DNA from: Escherichia phage vB_EcoM_WFbE185
DNA: 64,000 nucleotides
Reading direction: 5' to 3' (one strand)
Sequence record: MK373778.1
How positions within the stretch are numbered: position 1 is the first letter of the stretch; the number at the start of each line of letters is the position of its first letter. The notes under the pieces were generated by a model, which saw only the letters and a program-made list of their open reading frames with translations, was not told the DNA's origin and did no database searches. Made by a program: the position numbers and the translations under genes. Positions 5,279 to 12,570 of the stretch are shown here, one piece after another.

Positions 5279-5306
5279 TGTGGACTCCATTTAATTTGAT
5301 AGGACT

Positions 5307-5336
5307 ACTATAACATAGCCCTATCTTGTTGTAAAC
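5307..5336 (-). promoter_or_regulatory. early promoter cassette (GTTTAC / TATAGT in palindrome)
   Basis: same gataggactactataacatagccctatc cassette as at 4000. Confidence 0.55.
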
Positions 5337-6490: not shown

Positions 6491-6864
6491 CTTATTTCCT
6501 TAACGAATTCCATAGCTTCTTCATATTCATACTTTTTAACAGCTTCATCATACTGAGCTTGGGCTTTTGCGCACTGAACTTTCCATTCTCTTAATCGGGC
6601 TCTGTGATGACGGCCTTGGTGCCAATATCCTGCCCAATTAATAGGCATTAATAAAAATGGTACAATAAGTGGGGCGACGAACATTAATGAAAATGCTGCA
6701 TCAGACGATATAACTTTACTAGAATCTAAAACAGCTCCTATAATCATAAAGATTAAAAATGCTAAAGCTAAAATAGGGCCAAATAGTACTTCGTTTGGGA
6801 TTAATTTACGTTTGTATTCGTATGCCCAGGGCTTAATTGGCATGTACAGGGTTGGCTTTGACAT
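6469..6864 (-). CDS. hypothetical membrane protein, C-terminal EFVKEIRC
   Basis: ORF track 6469..6894 begins with TTG; first ATG at 6864 (MSKPTLY); two hydrophobic helices. Confidence 0.6.
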   Translation of the reverse strand: MSKPTLYMPIKPWAYEYKRKLIPNEVLFGPILALAFLIFMIIGAVLDSSKVISSDAAFSLMFVAPLIVPFLLMPINWAGYWHQGRHHRARLREWKVQCAKAQAQYDEAVKKYEYEEAMEFVKEIRCKSLNS

Positions 6865-8375: not shown

Positions 8376-8403
8376 TTTGTTTTCCTCTTGATTTGATAGG
8401 ACT

Positions 8404-8433
8404 ACTATAACATAAACTTACTTAGATGTAAAT
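8404..8433 (-). promoter_or_regulatory. early promoter cassette (ATTTAC / TATAGT in palindrome)
   Basis: gataggactactataacat motif upstream of ORF 8148..8375. Confidence 0.45.
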
Positions 8434-8586
8434 TATTTCAACGTCACCTTTAGCTGCTTTATAACCTTCAGCCCAAGATACAACAGAGTTTTTATCTGAG
8501 GATTCAAATTCAGGCATTGGACTTTCACCAATATTCACACAGTATGTTTCTTCATTTTCATCGAACCAAATAATTAAAGTAGTCAT
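8422..8586 (-). CDS. hypothetical small protein (54 aa), not in ORF track
   Basis: hand translation MTTLIIWFDENEETYCVNIGESPMPEFESSDKNSVVSWAEGYKAAKGDVEIIYI; GAGGAG SD and early promoter upstream. Confidence 0.45.
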   Translation of the reverse strand: MTTLIIWFDENEETYCVNIGESPMPEFESSDKNSVVSWAEGYKAAKGDVEIIYI

Positions 8587-8616
8587 TTTGTTTACTCCTC
8601 TGTAGTTGATAAGTCT

Positions 8617-8646
8617 ATAGTATCACCATCCTTGGTGCTTGTACAT
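8617..8646 (-). promoter_or_regulatory. early promoter (-10 TACTAT, weak -35) with conserved leader agacttatcaactacagagga
   Basis: leader shared with the cassettes at 8989 and 45058. Confidence 0.4.
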
Positions 8647-8960: not shown

Positions 8961-8988
8961 AATATTTTCCTCTGTAGTTGATAAGTCT

Positions 8989-9017
8989 ATAATATCATGC
9001 CCTTAGAAGAAGTAAAC
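8989..9017 (-). promoter_or_regulatory. early promoter (-35 GTTTAC, 17 nt, -10 TATTAT)
   Basis: minus GTTTACttcttctaagggcatgaTATTAT then conserved leader. Confidence 0.5.
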
Positions 9018-9055
9018 ATCTTTATGAAATATTTTTATGCCCTAGATACCAAAAA

Positions 9056-9077
9056 GCCCCAACCGTAAGGAAGGGGC
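9056..9077 (-). terminator. intrinsic terminator after IP-like gene
   Basis: gccccaaccgtaaggaaggggc hairpin then T-run on minus strand. Confidence 0.6.
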
Positions 9078-9085
9078 ATTCTATA

Positions 9086-9550
9086 TTATTTAATTTGTTT
9101 AGCAGACCAGATACGGTCTTTAATAAGTTTTTGGATATCTTCAACATACTCAAGGCTATGAGCGTGAGGATTATCTTTGAAGCTATGTGCTCGAGCGAGT
9201 TTCTGACCTTCAGTTTTGATTACCAAAAGTTCTTTAAGAATTGCTTCATACTTAGAAATAATTCCTTTGGCGATATTTTTTTCTTGAGCTGCTTTAGGGT
9301 CCGCTTTTGGTGATGGTGCTTTACCTGTAGCTTTCTGGAACAATTCACCTGATGCAGCTAGGCTTTTAAAAACTCGACTAACAGTATTAGCATTAGTAAA
9401 TCCTTCAGCTTTAAAATCTCTAATAAAACGGAAACGTTCTTCATCAGAGGCGTCTTTATAAGAATATTTACCTGCTTGAATTGCTGCAATTGCTGCGGCT
9501 TTTACATCTGAACTAGATTGTTCAGTCAAAAATTCTGCATATGATTTCAT
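9086..9550 (-). CDS. internal head protein-like, leader MKSYAEFLTE
   Basis: ORF track 154 aa; capsid targeting leader; flanked by near-identical hairpins. Confidence 0.7.
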   Translation of the reverse strand: MKSYAEFLTEQSSSDVKAAAIAAIQAGKYSYKDASDEERFRFIRDFKAEGFTNANTVSRVFKSLAASGELFQKATGKAPSPKADPKAAQEKNIAKGIISKYEAILKELLVIKTEGQKLARAHSFKDNPHAHSLEYVEDIQKLIKDRIWSAKQIK

Positions 9551-9594
9551 GTTACTTTTCCTAAGTTAATTAACTTATCTATTTATTATTATGC

Positions 9595-9622
9595 AAAAAA
9601 GCCCCAACCTTTCGGAAGGGGC
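9595..9622 (-). terminator. intrinsic terminator ending the tRNA-region transcript
   Basis: gccccaacctttcggaaggggc hairpin then TTTTTT on minus strand. Confidence 0.55.
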
Positions 9623-9654: not shown

Positions 9655-9700
9655 CAAGTGTTTGTACGAAACGCCGGGATTCGAACCCGGTTATTAAGCA
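9655..9700 (-). other. tRNA-like 3' element (T-arm plus acceptor-like stem), possible small stable RNA or tRNA remnant
   Basis: minus-strand ccgggTTCGAATcccgg followed by cgtttcg that can pair with cggaacg about 60 nt upstream; no full cloverleaf. Confidence 0.25.
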
Positions 9701-9925
9701 GTTGACGCTACTCAATATTTTTAAAAGGCCATATCTCGTCCATATCCGAACGTTCCGTCAAAAACGCTACTCGGCTTACGGCAAAGATATTTCCTCGAAT
9801 CGATAATTCTGTGCGCCGTTTCTGCTGTGATGTGAGGGGATATTAACAAATCGTAAAGATTTGTTAAGACCAGTCCTTACTCAGGGAACATCAGTCCGAC
9901 GTCTTGCCGGTAGCGACCCGGCTTC

Positions 9926-10270
9926 TTATTTTGGCATATCATCAATTTGCTCTCGACGCCGACGCCATAGATTAATCGCTTCATAGGCACATTCTGCGTT
10001 TGGTATATGACGGCAATAATATAATGATTCGCGTTTCTGGAACCGATGTTGCAACGGGATTTCGTTTAAAAGGTCTTTACGGTCAAAGTATTCAAAACTA
10101 GTTAACCCGGAACGGTTTTTAAGAAACTTCCAATGTCCGAATTCATTTTTAAAATAAACATAATCAGCATGTTGATATAATGAATTAATTAACCTATCGG
10201 AAATAACTGTTTCACGTTCGTTAAAATAAAACGTTAAATCATGAACTACCAGATACACATTGCCTTTCAT
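9926..10270 (-). CDS. hypothetical protein immediately downstream of tRNA-Arg
   Basis: ORF track 9926..10318 extension overlaps the tRNA; ATG at 10270 with GAGGA SD. Confidence 0.55.
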   Translation of the reverse strand: MKGNVYLVVHDLTFYFNERETVISDRLINSLYQHADYVYFKNEFGHWKFLKNRSGLTSFEYFDRKDLLNEIPLQHRFQKRESLYYCRHIPNAECAYEAINLWRRRREQIDDMPK

Positions 10271-10288: not shown

Positions 10289-10365
<77 letters not shown>

Positions 10366-10371
10366 AATATA

Positions 10372-10445
10372 TGACCCAGACCAGATTCGAACTGGTAACC
10401 TTTCCCTTATGAGGGGACTGCTGCTAACCATTGAGCTACAGGGCC
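10372..10445 (-). tRNA. tRNA with anticodon CAU (Met or Ile2 type)
   Basis: T-arm ACCAG-TTCGAAT-CTGGT, acceptor GGCCCTG/CTGGGTC with one mismatch, anticodon loop CTCATAA; D and anticodon stems imperfect. Confidence 0.5.
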
Positions 10446-10524
10446 TAAATAACTTTCTATTATGAAAGGCACTTTAGAGCACCTTTGGTAATAGAGGGTA
10501 TGAATTAATAATAACACATAATTC

Positions 10525-11040
10525 TTAAAGCAAATCAATCATTTTAACAGTCGGCAAAACGATTTCTTCTTCAATATAAGCAAATTCAACACATTCAACT
10601 ACACGCAAGAAATCATAATCATAATATTCAGAAGCATGGCCAAGAATATCAATGAGACCTTCTGATACTAAATATCCATTCTCATGGAACAGGTCAAATA
10701 CACGCGATTCGTCTTCTTCAGATTTATTACCAAGGTCGACTTCAATATCAAAGACCTTTTTAATGAATTCTGGATAAAGCTGGTCCGAGAACAATCCTTC
10801 AACCAAGTATTCATAGATTAAAAGCGAGCAATCACTGAATAGTGTATTACCACAGTAACGTTCAGCTTTAGTGCTAGAATGACGACTCTTAAATTTCTTC
10901 AAAAGATATTTAAACTGTTGGAGCTCATGCTCTTCCACACCAAATAATGTTTTGGTTTTATAGTTGTCGCCGTCATTTTCCCAAGTAGTGACATCAATTA
11001 CGTAACCCTTAGGAATTGTACTGCCTAAACAAATATTCAT
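10525..11040 (-). CDS. hypothetical protein
   Basis: ORF track 171 aa. Confidence 0.65.
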   Translation of the reverse strand: MNICLGSTIPKGYVIDVTTWENDGDNYKTKTLFGVEEHELQQFKYLLKKFKSRHSSTKAERYCGNTLFSDCSLLIYEYLVEGLFSDQLYPEFIKKVFDIEVDLGNKSEEDESRVFDLFHENGYLVSEGLIDILGHASEYYDYDFLRVVECVEFAYIEEEIVLPTVKMIDLL

Positions 11041-11044
11041 TTAC

Positions 11045-11335
11045 TCACCGTACCATATTAATGTAATTATATTCAATGCAACGTAATTTCAAAGGATTTT
11101 TGAAAATATCATATTCAAGAGGACCTTTTTCTGTTTCAATAAAGAAATCAAAGTTCACTGTATTAAATTTACGGTCTTCCCATAGTAATTTGACCTGTGA
11201 AGACGAACGGTCGATATAAACCTTTTCAACCTCAAAGTTAGTCAGAATACCGTAGTCGTCAACTAGTGCTTTAGCTGCACGTTGATCGCTTTCATATCCG
11301 TTCTCAATAGATGACACTTTAGCATAAAGAATCAT
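11045..11335 (-). CDS. hypothetical protein
   Basis: ORF track 96 aa; ATGA overlap with upstream ORF. Confidence 0.65.
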   Translation of the reverse strand: MILYAKVSSIENGYESDQRAAKALVDDYGILTNFEVEKVYIDRSSSQVKLLWEDRKFNTVNFDFFIETEKGPLEYDIFKNPLKLRCIEYNYINMVR

Positions 11336-11694
11336 GAATGTTCCACCACTTCAAAGGTGTGAGCATCAACAATATGATACCAGTCAAAATTTTCTTCTGC
11401 GTTTTTATAAATTTCGCGAAGAGCCTCAACGGTTTTTCCTGTAGCAACAAGGTCGTCAATACCACCAAGAGGATAACAGTCGTAACCAGCAAACAGAAGG
11501 AAATTAATAGTTTCTGTAGGTTCTGGATGCAGTGTACCATTGTCATCGACTACTTCAAAGAACATATAACCAGGCGATTTAGATTTAATCCAAGCCCATG
11601 CTTGAGCTGCTGAATCAAATGGTTTGCGTATCAAACGACAATCAGGGTCTTTAGAAGGATTTGCTTCAAAATCCGCATATACGTGATATTTCAT
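11332..11694 (-). CDS. hypothetical protein
   Basis: ORF track 11332..11727; ATG at 11694 (MKYHVY) has AGGTGA SD. Confidence 0.65.
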   Translation of the reverse strand: MKYHVYADFEANPSKDPDCRLIRKPFDSAAQAWAWIKSKSPGYMFFEVVDDNGTLHPEPTETINFLLFAGYDCYPLGGIDDLVATGKTVEALREIYKNAEENFDWYHIVDAHTFEVVEHS

Positions 11695-11695
11695 T

Positions 11696-11902
11696 TTACT
11701 CACCTTTTGCAATTTTATCCATAACAATAGCGATTAAACCGATTAGAAATGCTACTACCAATGAGATAGAATTTTCAGTTGTTGTCAGTAGTCCGCAAAT
11801 GAATCCTACAAACATCGAAAAACTAAAAGCCATTGAAGCAATTACTACAGCAACATTACGAATCAGTTCAGCGCGTTTCATTTTATTTCTCCGTTTACTC
11901 AT
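11696..11902 (-). CDS. hypothetical small membrane protein
   Basis: ORF track 68 aa; hydrophobic stretches; real start may be second ATG at 11881. Confidence 0.55.
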   Translation of the reverse strand: MSKRRNKMKRAELIRNVAVVIASMAFSFSMFVGFICGLLTTTENSISLVVAFLIGLIAIVMDKIAKGE

Positions 11903-11918
11903 TTGTTTTGATAGGACT

Positions 11919-11948
11919 ACTATAACATAGTCCTATCATCATGTAAAC
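11919..11948 (-). promoter_or_regulatory. early promoter cassette (GTTTAC / TATAGT in palindrome)
   Basis: gataggactactataacatagtcctatc. Confidence 0.55.
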
Positions 11949-11950
11949 TA

Positions 11951-12214
11951 TTAAATTCCAGCTTCGCGTTTAACATAATCAACATAAGCTTCGATAGCTT
12001 TCTTGCTGGTAATTTTTACCTGGCCACGTCCATTGCCTTCTTTAGAGTTTTTCTTAACAACTACATTACCATCTTTAACACCCCATACATGGACATAAGT
12101 ACCGATGTTTCGGTCGTAGAACATTGCATGGTCGTTGTTGTAAGAGAATGATTCGTAGTTCTCCGACAGAGTAGAAGATTGAGATTCAGCGATAAATTCT
12201 TTATACGTTTTCAT
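11951..12214 (-). CDS. internal head protein-like, leader MKTYKEFIAE
   Basis: ORF track 87 aa. Confidence 0.7.
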   Translation of the reverse strand: MKTYKEFIAESQSSTLSENYESFSYNNDHAMFYDRNIGTYVHVWGVKDGNVVVKKNSKEGNGRGQVKITSKKAIEAYVDYVKREAGI

Positions 12215-12249
12215 TTGTTTTTCCGTTTGGTTGTTGATTTGATAGGACT

Positions 12250-12279
12250 ACTATAACATAGTCCTATCGGCATGTAAAC
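12250..12279 (-). promoter_or_regulatory. early promoter cassette (GTTTAC / TATAGT in palindrome)
   Basis: gataggactactataacatagtcctatc. Confidence 0.55.
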
Positions 12280-12282
12280 TAC

Positions 12283-12570
12283 TTACAGAAGAGTTTTTGC
12301 AATAATTTTAAGCTGAGCTACAGAAATATGCTTAGCTTTAAACAGTGCAGTCTCTTCGGCCGGAGAGATAACAATAGTAGCGCCGTCTTTCTTAGCAGAC
12401 CATCCGTCCCCTAAGTAAACAGTACCTTTTACTTCTTCACCGTCAACCAGACTAATCATTGGTTTACCCTCACGTCCTTTATTTGCTTTAATAACTTCGG
12501 AAGTAAGGGTTGCTTCGGTTAGAGTAGAAACGTTAGCATCAGGTGATATAAATTCTTTATAGGTTTTCAT
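12283..12570 (-). CDS. internal head protein-like, leader MKTYKEFIS...TLTE
   Basis: ORF track 95 aa. Confidence 0.65.
   Translation of the reverse strand: MKTYKEFISPDANVSTLTEATLTSEVIKANKGREGKPMISLVDGEEVKGTVYLGDGWSAKKDGATIVISPAEETALFKAKHISVAQLKIIAKTLL

Follow-up and report, generated by a model that had tools for sequence, protein, structure and literature searches.

The window, that is the whole stretch of 64,000 nucleotides of Escherichia phage vB_EcoM_WFbE185 (MK373778.1) that was analysed, harbours at 10525-11902 a block of four ORFs on the minus strand, followed on the same strand by a series of RNA genes. The features of this region are given here in the direction of the minus strand:

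11910..11948, minus strand: PeSL-type early promoter with hairpin, predicted, directly upstream of trna.4
11696-11902, minus strand: 68-aa ORF, trna.4 ortholog (61-aa version at 11696-11881)
11332-11694, minus strand: 120-aa ORF from ATG (131 aa if begun at a TTG further upstream), trna.3 ortholog
11045-11335, minus strand: 96-aa ORF, trna.2 ortholog
10525-11040, minus strand: 171-aa ORF, RB69 ORF151c ortholog, phrog_2290
10508..10532, minus strand: candidate MotA-dependent middle promoter, overlapping the ORF151c stop, recognised by consensus only
10464..10485, minus strand: conserved leader hairpin, between ORF151c and the CAU tRNA
10372..10445, minus strand: tRNA with CAU anticodon, called Met (ARAGORN; Rfam tRNA, 54 bits)
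10289..10365, minus strand: tRNA-Arg (UCU) (ARAGORN; Rfam tRNA, 71 bits)
9926..10270, minus strand: RB69 ORF150c ortholog, 114 aa (phrog_3355, E 2e-50), between tRNA-Arg and rnaD
~9810-9929, minus strand: rnaD homolog (101/119 identical in the T4 alignment)
~9665-9803, minus strand: rnaC homolog (136/139 identical in the T4 alignment)
9591..9622, minus strand: intrinsic-terminator-like hairpin with T run (GCCCCUUCCGAAAGGUUGGGGC + UUUUUU, dG -18 kcal/mol)

The original prediction described four tightly packed ORFs between the tRNAs and the internal-protein genes. The packing is confirmed, with sizes that match the ORF listing, and so is the location: the tRNAs occupy 10289-10445, and beyond the other end of the block two ORFs with capsid-targeting N-termini (MKTYKEFI...) are found at 11951-12214 and 12283-12570. 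None of the four ORFs itself carries the N-terminal capsid-targeting sequence MKTY.EF of the T4 IPI/II/III type. The proposed stop-start overlaps exist at only one junction, where the trna.2 start overlaps the trna.3 stop (ATGA, 11332-11335), while at the other two the ORFs are separated by 1 nt and 4 nt. The 68-aa ORF is indeed small and hydrophobic (GRAVY 1.24). The statement that no motif can be recognised also holds, as scans against the local Pfam library, NCBIfam and PADLOC, as well as comparisons with PDB entries, gave nothing above threshold for the block proteins. The products would be three small acidic cytoplasmic proteins, with computed pI values of 4.5-5.0, and one membrane protein with two spans.

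The trna.4 ortholog matches T4 Trna.4 with 84% identity over 61 aa (E 7e-36) and phrog_1692 in the PHROG profile search (E 2e-32). All family features are present, namely the sequence similarity, the length of 61 aa and two hydrophobic spans (approximately residues 9-31 and 37-55), which are predicted from hydropathy to be transmembrane. This length presupposes that translation starts at the second ATG at 11881, which is most likely judging from the sequence, because GGAG precedes this ATG by 8 nt while the first ATG (11902) has no Shine-Dalgarno sequence. Further points against the first ATG are that the predicted start of transcription is only ~10 nt away, that T4 lacks this ATG and that JS98 has it in a different reading frame.

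The trna.3 ortholog (120 aa, pI 4.6) is 100% identical to RB69 tRNA.3, is assigned to phrog_1411 (E 1.3e-46, PHROG profile search) and has AGGTGAG upstream of its ATG; its homologs carry PF26894 in precomputed annotation. T4 Trna.3, in contrast, is 136 aa long and shows only 41% full-length identity (E 6e-28), the allele here being the deeply divergent RB69 or Mosigvirus type. The gene has been swapped for a deeply divergent allele with flanks that are still 84-89% identical, an observation which stands as a hint beside the counter-defence reading discussed below. A phosphoribosyltransferase was considered for trna.3 and rejected: the match covers 21 residues with E 0.03-0.2, far under the cut-offs, a type I PRT fold is expected to comprise about 170-180 aa, compared to 120 aa here, and a PRPP loop was dismissed because IDDLVATGKT is not conserved, T4 having DDLIAYAET.

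The trna.2 ortholog, which follows trna.3 directly and precedes the tRNA cluster as in T4, shows 89% identity to T4 Trna.2 over 87 aa (E 4e-57) and belongs to phrog_2023 (E 4.5e-46, PHROG profile search); PF27001 is found in the precomputed annotation of all 46 of 46 homologs. The last 8-9 residues of the T4 protein differ from the version here because the breakpoint of a T4 deletion lies there. A restriction-endonuclease-like (PD-(D/E)XK) protein was considered for trna.2 in view of a marginal match to the PADLOC model REase_II (E 0.0027 over 40 residues); D42, the putative catalytic Asp, is not conserved. The AF2 model of trna.2 is poor (pLDDT 55.6), and a fold search with it gave nothing significant; weak matches to hotdog folds (E ≥0.2, TM ≤0.44) were treated as meaningless.

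The 171-aa ORF is the ortholog of RB69 ORF151c, with 96.5% identity and no difference of note, and as in RB69 it sits between trna.2 and the first tRNA. It is acidic (pI 4.5) and matches phrog_2290 over residues 1-170 (E 2.5e-68, PHROG profile search), the PHROG that is also hit by 58 of 58 diverse relatives; the family is large and restricted to phages, and forms 962 or more clusters when grouped at 50% identity. E21, D23 and R146 are invariant in the family alignment, which shows the motif W-E-N-D-G-D, and the ortholog here has all the conserved positions (W-E-N-D-G-D, G-N and R). The AF2 model is confident (pLDDT 87.7, pTM 0.82). Foldseek found no match for it in the PDB (best E 0.87) and only uncharacterised phage proteins in BFVD; the family has neither a Pfam model in the local library nor a solved structure. 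Sequence and profile searches against the PDB with ORF151c, trna.2 and trna.3 were likewise empty, and a DGDNYKT hairpin turn resembling the DDGNYKT turn of GFP, seen in the PDB searches, is a chance match. A tBLASTn search with two divergent metagenomic relatives recovered the same groups of phages. Clustering the neighbours of 40 family loci gave recurrent neighbours only inside inherited Straboviridae synteny; a Phage_30_3 (AdfN, anti-DarTG) gene directly follows phrog_2290 in eight loci. A literature search on ORF151c, phrog_2290, PF27001, PF26894 and Trna.3 turned up nothing relevant.

Directly upstream of trna.4 lies a PeSL-type element, composed of a -35 hexamer TTTACA (11947-11942), a 17-nt spacer and a -10 hexamer TATAGT (11924-11919), which scores 10/12 hexamer matches with a TG extension in the promoter scan. 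Its stem (ATAGGACTA / TAGTCCTAT) spans the -10, and the hairpin at 11910..11948 has a dG of -17.6 kcal/mol; the PeSL hairpins in the window reach z -4.1 (this one) and -4.6. The 39-nt pattern occurs in three copies in the window, compared to none expected, and the copies at 11910-11948 and 12241-12279 flank an 87-aa ORF with capsid-targeting leader. This ORF varies among close relatives, as seen from two-piece matches, and a 43-bp direct repeat is annotated in ATK47. PeSL elements are known as a near-consensus early promoter plus stem-loop at the borders of variable genes (Arbiol et al. 2010; Comeau et al. 2014), which is also the arrangement here. However, the promoter deviates at one -10 position from the T4-type consensus TTTACW-N17-TAYWAT (PMC4122927), and the stem here encloses the -10 hexamer. 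In T4, SHFML-26 and JS98 a comparable element, with the same -35 and a hairpin, occupies the corresponding position upstream of trna.4, although in T4 and SHFML-26 the stem sequence differs. Promoter-like sites as such are not in excess in the region (14 compared to 13.4 in shuffled sequence). Judging from its sequence, the element at 11910..11948 probably has promoter activity.

A second, MotA-type match (TGCTTTA 10532-10526, 12 nt, TATTAT 10513-10508) corresponds to the combination of Mot-box TGCTT and -10 TATTAT (PMC4122927). T4 keeps the same string right after trna.2 even though ORF151c is absent, and it is kept in the other aligned loci too. The 85-nt spacer from ORF151c to the tRNA is predicted to be structured (dG -18.9 kcal/mol, z -3.5). 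Ten pairs of its hairpin are kept in seven loci, whichever tRNA comes next, with only one compensatory pair. Rfam hits within the block (snoR130, plastid UTR families) are sub-threshold and implausible.

As regards the RNA genes, the CAU tRNA is labelled tRNA-Ile in the related phages AlbertHofmann and ChristianSchoenbein, ORF150c is annotated in JK45 and ATK47, and an Rfam scan of 9665..9929, which covers rnaD and rnaC, reported no family. The terminator-like hairpin at 9591..9622, of which a second copy is found at 9046-9077, is likely to be the end of the transcription unit.

Taken from consensus matches, promoters, read-through and terminator would give the following scheme. Host RNA polymerase would start at the early promoter (11947-11919), and translation of the four ORFs would be coupled from one to the next, as suggested by the fact that each Shine-Dalgarno sequence sits within the end of the preceding ORF. 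The transcript would then run through the leader into tRNA(CAU), tRNA-Arg(UCU), ORF150c, rnaD and rnaC and end near 9600, and the MotA-type middle promoter may feed the RNA genes later in infection. We thus infer both the use of the promoters and the co-transcription.

In T4, trna.2, trna.3, trna.4 and the tRNAs are all early at the RNA level, and for trna.2 and trna.3 the protein is early as well (PMC9697503 supplement). All three T4 genes are non-essential by transposon saturation (HIDEN-SEQ, bioRxiv 10.1101/2025.11.20.689424 supplement), and the main text of that study reports no conditional phenotype for them. The block was proposed to be accessory, and these data bear this out; its products would be dispensable in laboratory hosts. 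Clear orthology to characterised T4 genes, which the original prediction named as the finding that would speak against it, is borne out only by half: the orthology is clear for three ORFs, for which a failing reciprocal best hit is already ruled out, but the T4 counterparts are genes which have been named and not characterised. In T4 trna.2, trna.3 and trna.4 (NP_049746-NP_049748) stand in the same order, on the same strand and at the same place between ipI and the tRNAs, and the synteny is shared with JS98 and SHFML-26 as well. The difference is the extra gene after trna.2, ORF151c, which is deleted in T4. The block is therefore very probably the promoter-proximal, protein-coding part of a T4-type early tRNA/stable-RNA operon, consisting of trna.4, trna.3, trna.2 and RB69 ORF151c. 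As a set of genes it is already catalogued, being the ordinary ORF set ahead of the T-even tRNA genes.

Which job these proteins do has to be concluded from the neighbouring genes, and on this basis host takeover or counter-defence appears the most likely one, although we propose it only tentatively. The reading is based on the fact that the block belongs to the same hyperplastic island as ipI and 57B/Acb1: 57B is Acb1 (anti-CBASS), and inhibitors of type IV restriction (IPI*, anti-GmrSD) are the products of the ipI locus. The anti-DarTG gene that follows phrog_2290 in eight loci points the same way, and the acidic pI values are a further hint. These genes are immediate upstream neighbours and share the early, hyperplastic and dispensable region with the block. 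However, the four ORFs have no sequence or fold similarity to them, and which neighbours a gene has in a hyperplastic region says little about its function. In a pulldown that enriched just two T4 proteins with wild-type DRT1, Trna.2 was one of the pair; the authors took it no further (PMC13275509). This physical link to DRT1, and the repeated association of the ORF151c family, which matches no solved structure, with tRNA genes, are the residual pointers. As conserved, early-expressed and dispensable genes beside proven counter-defence genes, the four are reasonable candidates for gene-by-defence screens on T4-like phages.

The tRNA association suggests another reading, in which ORF151c, perhaps with the whole block, acts on or with the phage tRNAs by maturing them, modifying them or shielding them from host tRNA-targeting nucleases. 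Such an action would explain why ORF151c is retained inside tRNA clusters. Among 50 full-length family members on IMG/VR contigs a tRNA lies within 500 nt in 19, within 2 kb in 30 and within 6 kb in 33 cases, whereas chance proximity, judged by how much of T4 its tRNA cluster spans, is estimated at about 3-6% of a genome. All tRNAs in these 50 loci share the strand of the family gene, and the tRNA-linked loci include contigs of 97, 200, 307 and 343-378 kb which are not standard T4-likes. Co-transcription of ORF151c with the tRNAs is likely, and the invariance of E21, D23 and R146 would suit an active or ligand-binding site. On the other hand, 17 of the 50 loci are without a tRNA within 6 kb, and since synteny was inherited in common by many of the positive loci, few of the observations are independent. 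Furthermore, hyperplastic regions gather both tRNA clusters and small accessory ORFs, T4 keeps eight tRNAs without ORF151c, and PDB fold, sequence and profile searches found no similarity of ORF151c to any RNA-binding or RNA-modifying fold. We therefore regard an action on phage tRNAs as unlikely. Similarly doubtful is the broader idea that ORF151c is an unrecognised factor tied to the tRNA clusters of several large-phage lineages; if true, it might guard or mature phage tRNAs while the host attacks its own tRNA pool.

For Trna.4, acting independently of the other three genes, a role in lysis (holin/antiholin) or in excluding superinfecting phages at the inner membrane is rather improbable. 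Its two hydrophobic spans within 61 aa, its charged ends and its wide retention, with 936 records the highest of the four genes, would be in line with such a role, as would a weak match to the holin family phrog_785. This match is non-significant, though (E 0.043), and T4 trna.4 is transcribed early and not late, which fits a holin poorly, and is non-essential with no phenotype reported. A holin identity, for which a significant family match and late expression would be expected, was rejected.

All four ORFs are under purifying selection: dN/dS is 0.10-0.13 for the 171-aa ORF, trna.2 (0.12-0.13) and trna.4 (0.11-0.12) at dS ~1, and 0.10-0.21 for trna.3, compared to 0.07 for 57B and 0.23 for gene 1 among the neighbouring known genes. 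It is thus barely credible that the ORFs, though dispensable and located in the 5' part of the tRNA transcription unit, are merely a translated leader which stabilises or times the tRNA precursor transcript: dN/dS values of ~0.1, the detection of the Trna.2 and Trna.3 proteins in T4 infection, and the confident model and invariant residues of ORF151c all speak for functional proteins.

Hardly tenable, too, is an accessory module specific to one phage lineage, as had been proposed for the four ORFs with no Pfam or NCBIfam match and, as it turns out, dispensable T4 counterparts, since three of them are T4 orthologs in T4 order, all four genes occur in hundreds of genomes from several genera (ORF151c in 561, trna.2 in 802 and trna.3 in 761 phage records), and trna.2 and trna.4 with 82-84% full-length identity to T4 are better conserved than the gene 1 dNMP kinase (63%). 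This false lead is removed, and the block is not special to a lineage. Its DNA is found in 750 records. ORF151c is present in many genomes of Tequatrovirus (T2, SHFML-26), Mosigvirus and Dhakavirus and in T4-likes of Klebsiella, Enterobacter, Yersinia and Aeromonas. The four genes are not an obligate module. ORF151c is found in 52 Aeromonas records, whereas no Aeromonas phage with trna.2, trna.3 or trna.4 appears in the organism tallies or among the matches listed, and in Klebsiella phage Mineola a part of the tRNA cluster lies between trna.4 and the ORF151c homolog.

The four minus-strand ORFs at 10525-11902 are the trna.4-trna.3-trna.2-ORF151c set catalogued in T-even phages, a block which is conserved, early and dispensable. 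The ORF listing confirms the place noted for them between the tRNAs and ORFs with the T4 capsid-targeting leader:

10289-10365, tRNA Arg-UCU
10372-10445, tRNA Met-CAU
10525-11040, minus strand, ORF151c, 171 aa
11045-11335, minus strand, trna.2, 96 aa
11332-11694, minus strand, trna.3, 120 aa
11696-11902, minus strand, trna.4, 68 aa as listed
11951-12214 and 12283-12570, ORFs with the leader MKTYKEFI, flanking the block on the side opposite the tRNAs

The phage is RB69-like, a T-even phage whose nucleotide sequence is about 96% identical to those of JK45 and O157 typing phage 3. In the T4 record trna.2, trna.3 and trna.4 occupy exactly the same place, with the tRNA cluster on one side and ipI on the other, and pairwise BLASTP matches the 96-aa ORF to Trna.2 (89% identity, E 4e-57), the 120-aa ORF to Trna.3 (41%, E 6e-28) and the 61-aa core of the 68-aa ORF to Trna.4 (84%, E 7e-36). 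The 171-aa ORF is RB69ORF151c (96.5% identity), a member of phrog_2290 with a homolog also in T2. T4 lacks it through an indel, whose edges in the window/T4 alignment lie in the last trna.2 codons (left) and about 10 nt ahead of the ORF151c stop (right). All four genes are present in unchanged order in Dhakavirus JS98 and in Tequatrovirus SHFML-26, there followed by a T4-type tRNA cluster. Within a collection of 50,697 genomes ORF151c was found in 561 phage records, trna.2 in 802, trna.3 in 761 and trna.4 in 936; 750 records match the block DNA, in three configurations (full block, all but the trna.3 allele, and T4 type without ORF151c). Because of this orthology, synteny and abundance, the original prediction of an accessory module specific to this lineage is wrong as to the lineage, while dispensability is borne out by the T4 orthologs. 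The four genes are no obligate travelling unit. ORF151c occurs in 52 records of Aeromonas phages, whereas the tallies by organism and the matches listed for trna.2, trna.3 and trna.4 contain none from an Aeromonas phage. In Mineola, a Klebsiella phage, some of the tRNA cluster stands between trna.4 and the ORF151c homolog.

All four ORFs are real genes. The Nei-Gojobori dN/dS against homologs (dS about 1) is 0.11 for ORF151c, 0.12-0.13 for trna.2, 0.10-0.21 for trna.3 and 0.11-0.12 for trna.4 (61 aa), compared with 0.07 and 0.23 for the known neighbours 57B and gene 1. In T4, early expression of trna.2 and trna.3 is seen in both RNA and protein, that of trna.4 and the tRNAs in RNA (PMC9697503 supplement). 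Transposon insertions were tolerated at 92-98% of sites in T4 trna.2, trna.3 and trna.4, all of them scored non-essential (HIDEN-SEQ, bioRxiv 10.1101/2025.11.20.689424 supplement).

The tight stop-start packing noted originally applies to the trna.3/trna.2 junction, a true ATGA overlap, whereas the other two junctions are 1-nt and 4-nt gaps. A good Shine-Dalgarno sequence (GGAG, AGGTGAG, GGTGG, GGTGAG) stands ahead of every start in the block, each time inside the last part of the ORF before it, an arrangement that points to translational coupling. Translation of trna.4 probably starts at the second ATG (11881), giving 61 and not 68 aa, because the first ATG has no Shine-Dalgarno sequence, is missing from T4 and is out of frame in JS98.

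The surrounding elements are compatible with one predicted transcription unit:

11910-11948, 39-nt element like a promoter-early stem-loop (PeSL), TTTACA-N17-TATAGT with a perfect hairpin, directly upstream of trna.4
10508-10532, candidate MotA-box middle promoter, TGCTTTA, 12 nt, TATTAT, built from the last ORF151c codons (TTG CTT TAA)
9665-9929, rnaD and rnaC homologs (stable RNAs in T4), 85% and 98% to T4, respectively
9591-9622, minus strand, terminator-like GC-rich hairpin and T run, after rnaC
9046-9077, minus strand, second GC-rich hairpin and T run, after a 154-aa ORF (9086-9550)

An early PeSL-type promoter would drive trna.4-trna.3-trna.2-ORF151c, a leader, the tRNAs, ORF150c, rnaD and rnaC up to a terminator, a layout mirroring that of T4, and a MotA-type middle promoter at the end of ORF151c would serve the downstream tRNA genes. 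The 39-nt element matches the T4-type PeSL consensus TTTACW-N17-TAYWAT (PMC4122927) save for one -10 position. Further copies lie at 12241-12279 and, less exactly (3 mismatches), at 5298-5336 (chance expectation 0 copies), and a like element stands at the same place in T4, SHFML-26 and JS98; counted over the whole region, promoter-like sites are no more numerous than in shuffled sequence. Exactly the same TGCTTTA/TATTAT string is kept in T4 after trna.2 (about 6600-6625 of the T4 locus) despite the loss of ORF151c, as expected if it is a middle promoter of the tRNA genes. The leader hairpin ahead of the first tRNA is conserved whichever tRNA comes first. Downstream of the tRNAs follow ORF150c, the rnaD and rnaC homologs, for which Rfam reported no match, and the terminator hairpin. 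Both hairpins, 84% alike, are likely intrinsic terminators, missed by a simple terminator scan because of an internal stem mismatch. rnaC is conserved far better than the surrounding protein genes. Weaker copies of the PeSL-like element lie near 8379-8438, 8596-8625 and 8964-9023.

As to function, the literature search found a description for none of trna.2, trna.3, trna.4 and ORF151c, and Pfam, NCBIfam and PADLOC scans gave nothing significant, in agreement with the lack of a recognisable motif remarked on at first. The AlphaFold2 model of ORF151c is confident (pLDDT 87.7, pTM 0.82) and has helices packed against a three-stranded sheet; Foldseek found no match in the PDB (best E 0.87) and only uncharacterised phage proteins in BFVD. 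A profile search against 1.84 billion representatives retrieved 962 clusters (416 at E <1e-10), and the 150 matches listed are all stand-alone proteins of 91-212 aa. Among 58 diverse relatives, all phrog_2290 and without Pfam or PDB match, E21, D23 and R146 are invariant, and conservation reaches 90% or more at G12, W20, N22, D25, F50, G64 and N65. For trna.2 the model is poor (pLDDT 55.6), and a fold search with it was uninformative. Weak leads to a phosphoribosyltransferase (trna.3), a restriction endonuclease (trna.2) and a holin (trna.4) failed conservation or significance tests.

We tentatively favour, by association only, a role of the block in host takeover or counter-defence, on four grounds. 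Upstream, the block has as neighbours 57B and a gene for an ipI-type internal protein (phrog_4363); their T4 counterparts act against CBASS (57B = Acb1) and type IV restriction (IPI*). A gene of Phage_30_3 (PF08010), the family to which T4 30.3/adfN, an anti-DarTG gene, belongs, adjoins the ORF151c homolog in eight related loci (L012, L014-L016, L025, L027, L029, L033; T4-likes of Klebsiella such as Mineola included), downstream in seven of them and at about 6.5-7.0 kb in L014, whereas T4 carries 30.3/adfN elsewhere in the genome. The three soluble proteins are acidic (pI 4.5-5.0). Finally, trna.3 looks like a gene replaced by an old allele rather than one that drifted gradually, because its identities are bimodal (133 records at ≥80%, 628 at <60%) and its dN against T4 is 0.55 (dS saturated, 41% identity), compared with 0.11-0.14 for the flanking trna.2 and trna.4 (84-89% identity).

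A tRNA-linked role of ORF151c seems to us improbable, though it deserves mention. In a set of 50 full-length phrog_2290 loci drawn from IMG/VR a tRNA lies within 500 nt in 19 and within 2 kb in 30, where we estimate a few percent by chance, but shared synteny inflates these counts. The tRNAs are always on the strand of the gene, and the loci concerned include contigs of 97, 200, 307 and 343-378 kb; however, 17 of the 50 have no tRNA within 6 kb, and T4 retains its tRNAs without ORF151c. Worth following up are phrog_2290, a large family without a solved-structure match and often in tRNA clusters, and the link of Trna.2 to DRT1: only two T4 proteins, Trna.2 among them, were enriched with wild-type DRT1 versus the reverse-transcriptase-dead control (PMC13275509).

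The near-identical PeSL-like repeats at 11910-11948 and 12241-12279 bracket the 87-aa ORF 11951-12214, which has a capsid-targeting leader and resembles a cassette that has entered the ipI locus; it differs among close relatives, which match this stretch in two pieces. Across the tRNAs from ipI, the 154-aa ORF (phrog_2280) starts with MKSYAEFLTEQ, resembling the leader of T4 internal proteins, and may encode another internal protein that is injected. In the JS98 record the stretch between 57B and trna.4 is without annotation; 975-1560 there holds two ORFs with such leaders, MKSYKEFLTE, from a GTG start codon, and MKTYQEFIKE. One PeSL-like promoter sits between the two, in front of the second, and one precedes trna.4. 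The CAU tRNA at 10372-10445, Met by ARAGORN and tRNA-Ile in some related phage records, may, as in T4, be an isoleucine tRNA that reads AUA; the tRNA closest to the ORF151c homolog has a CAU anticodon in many related loci.
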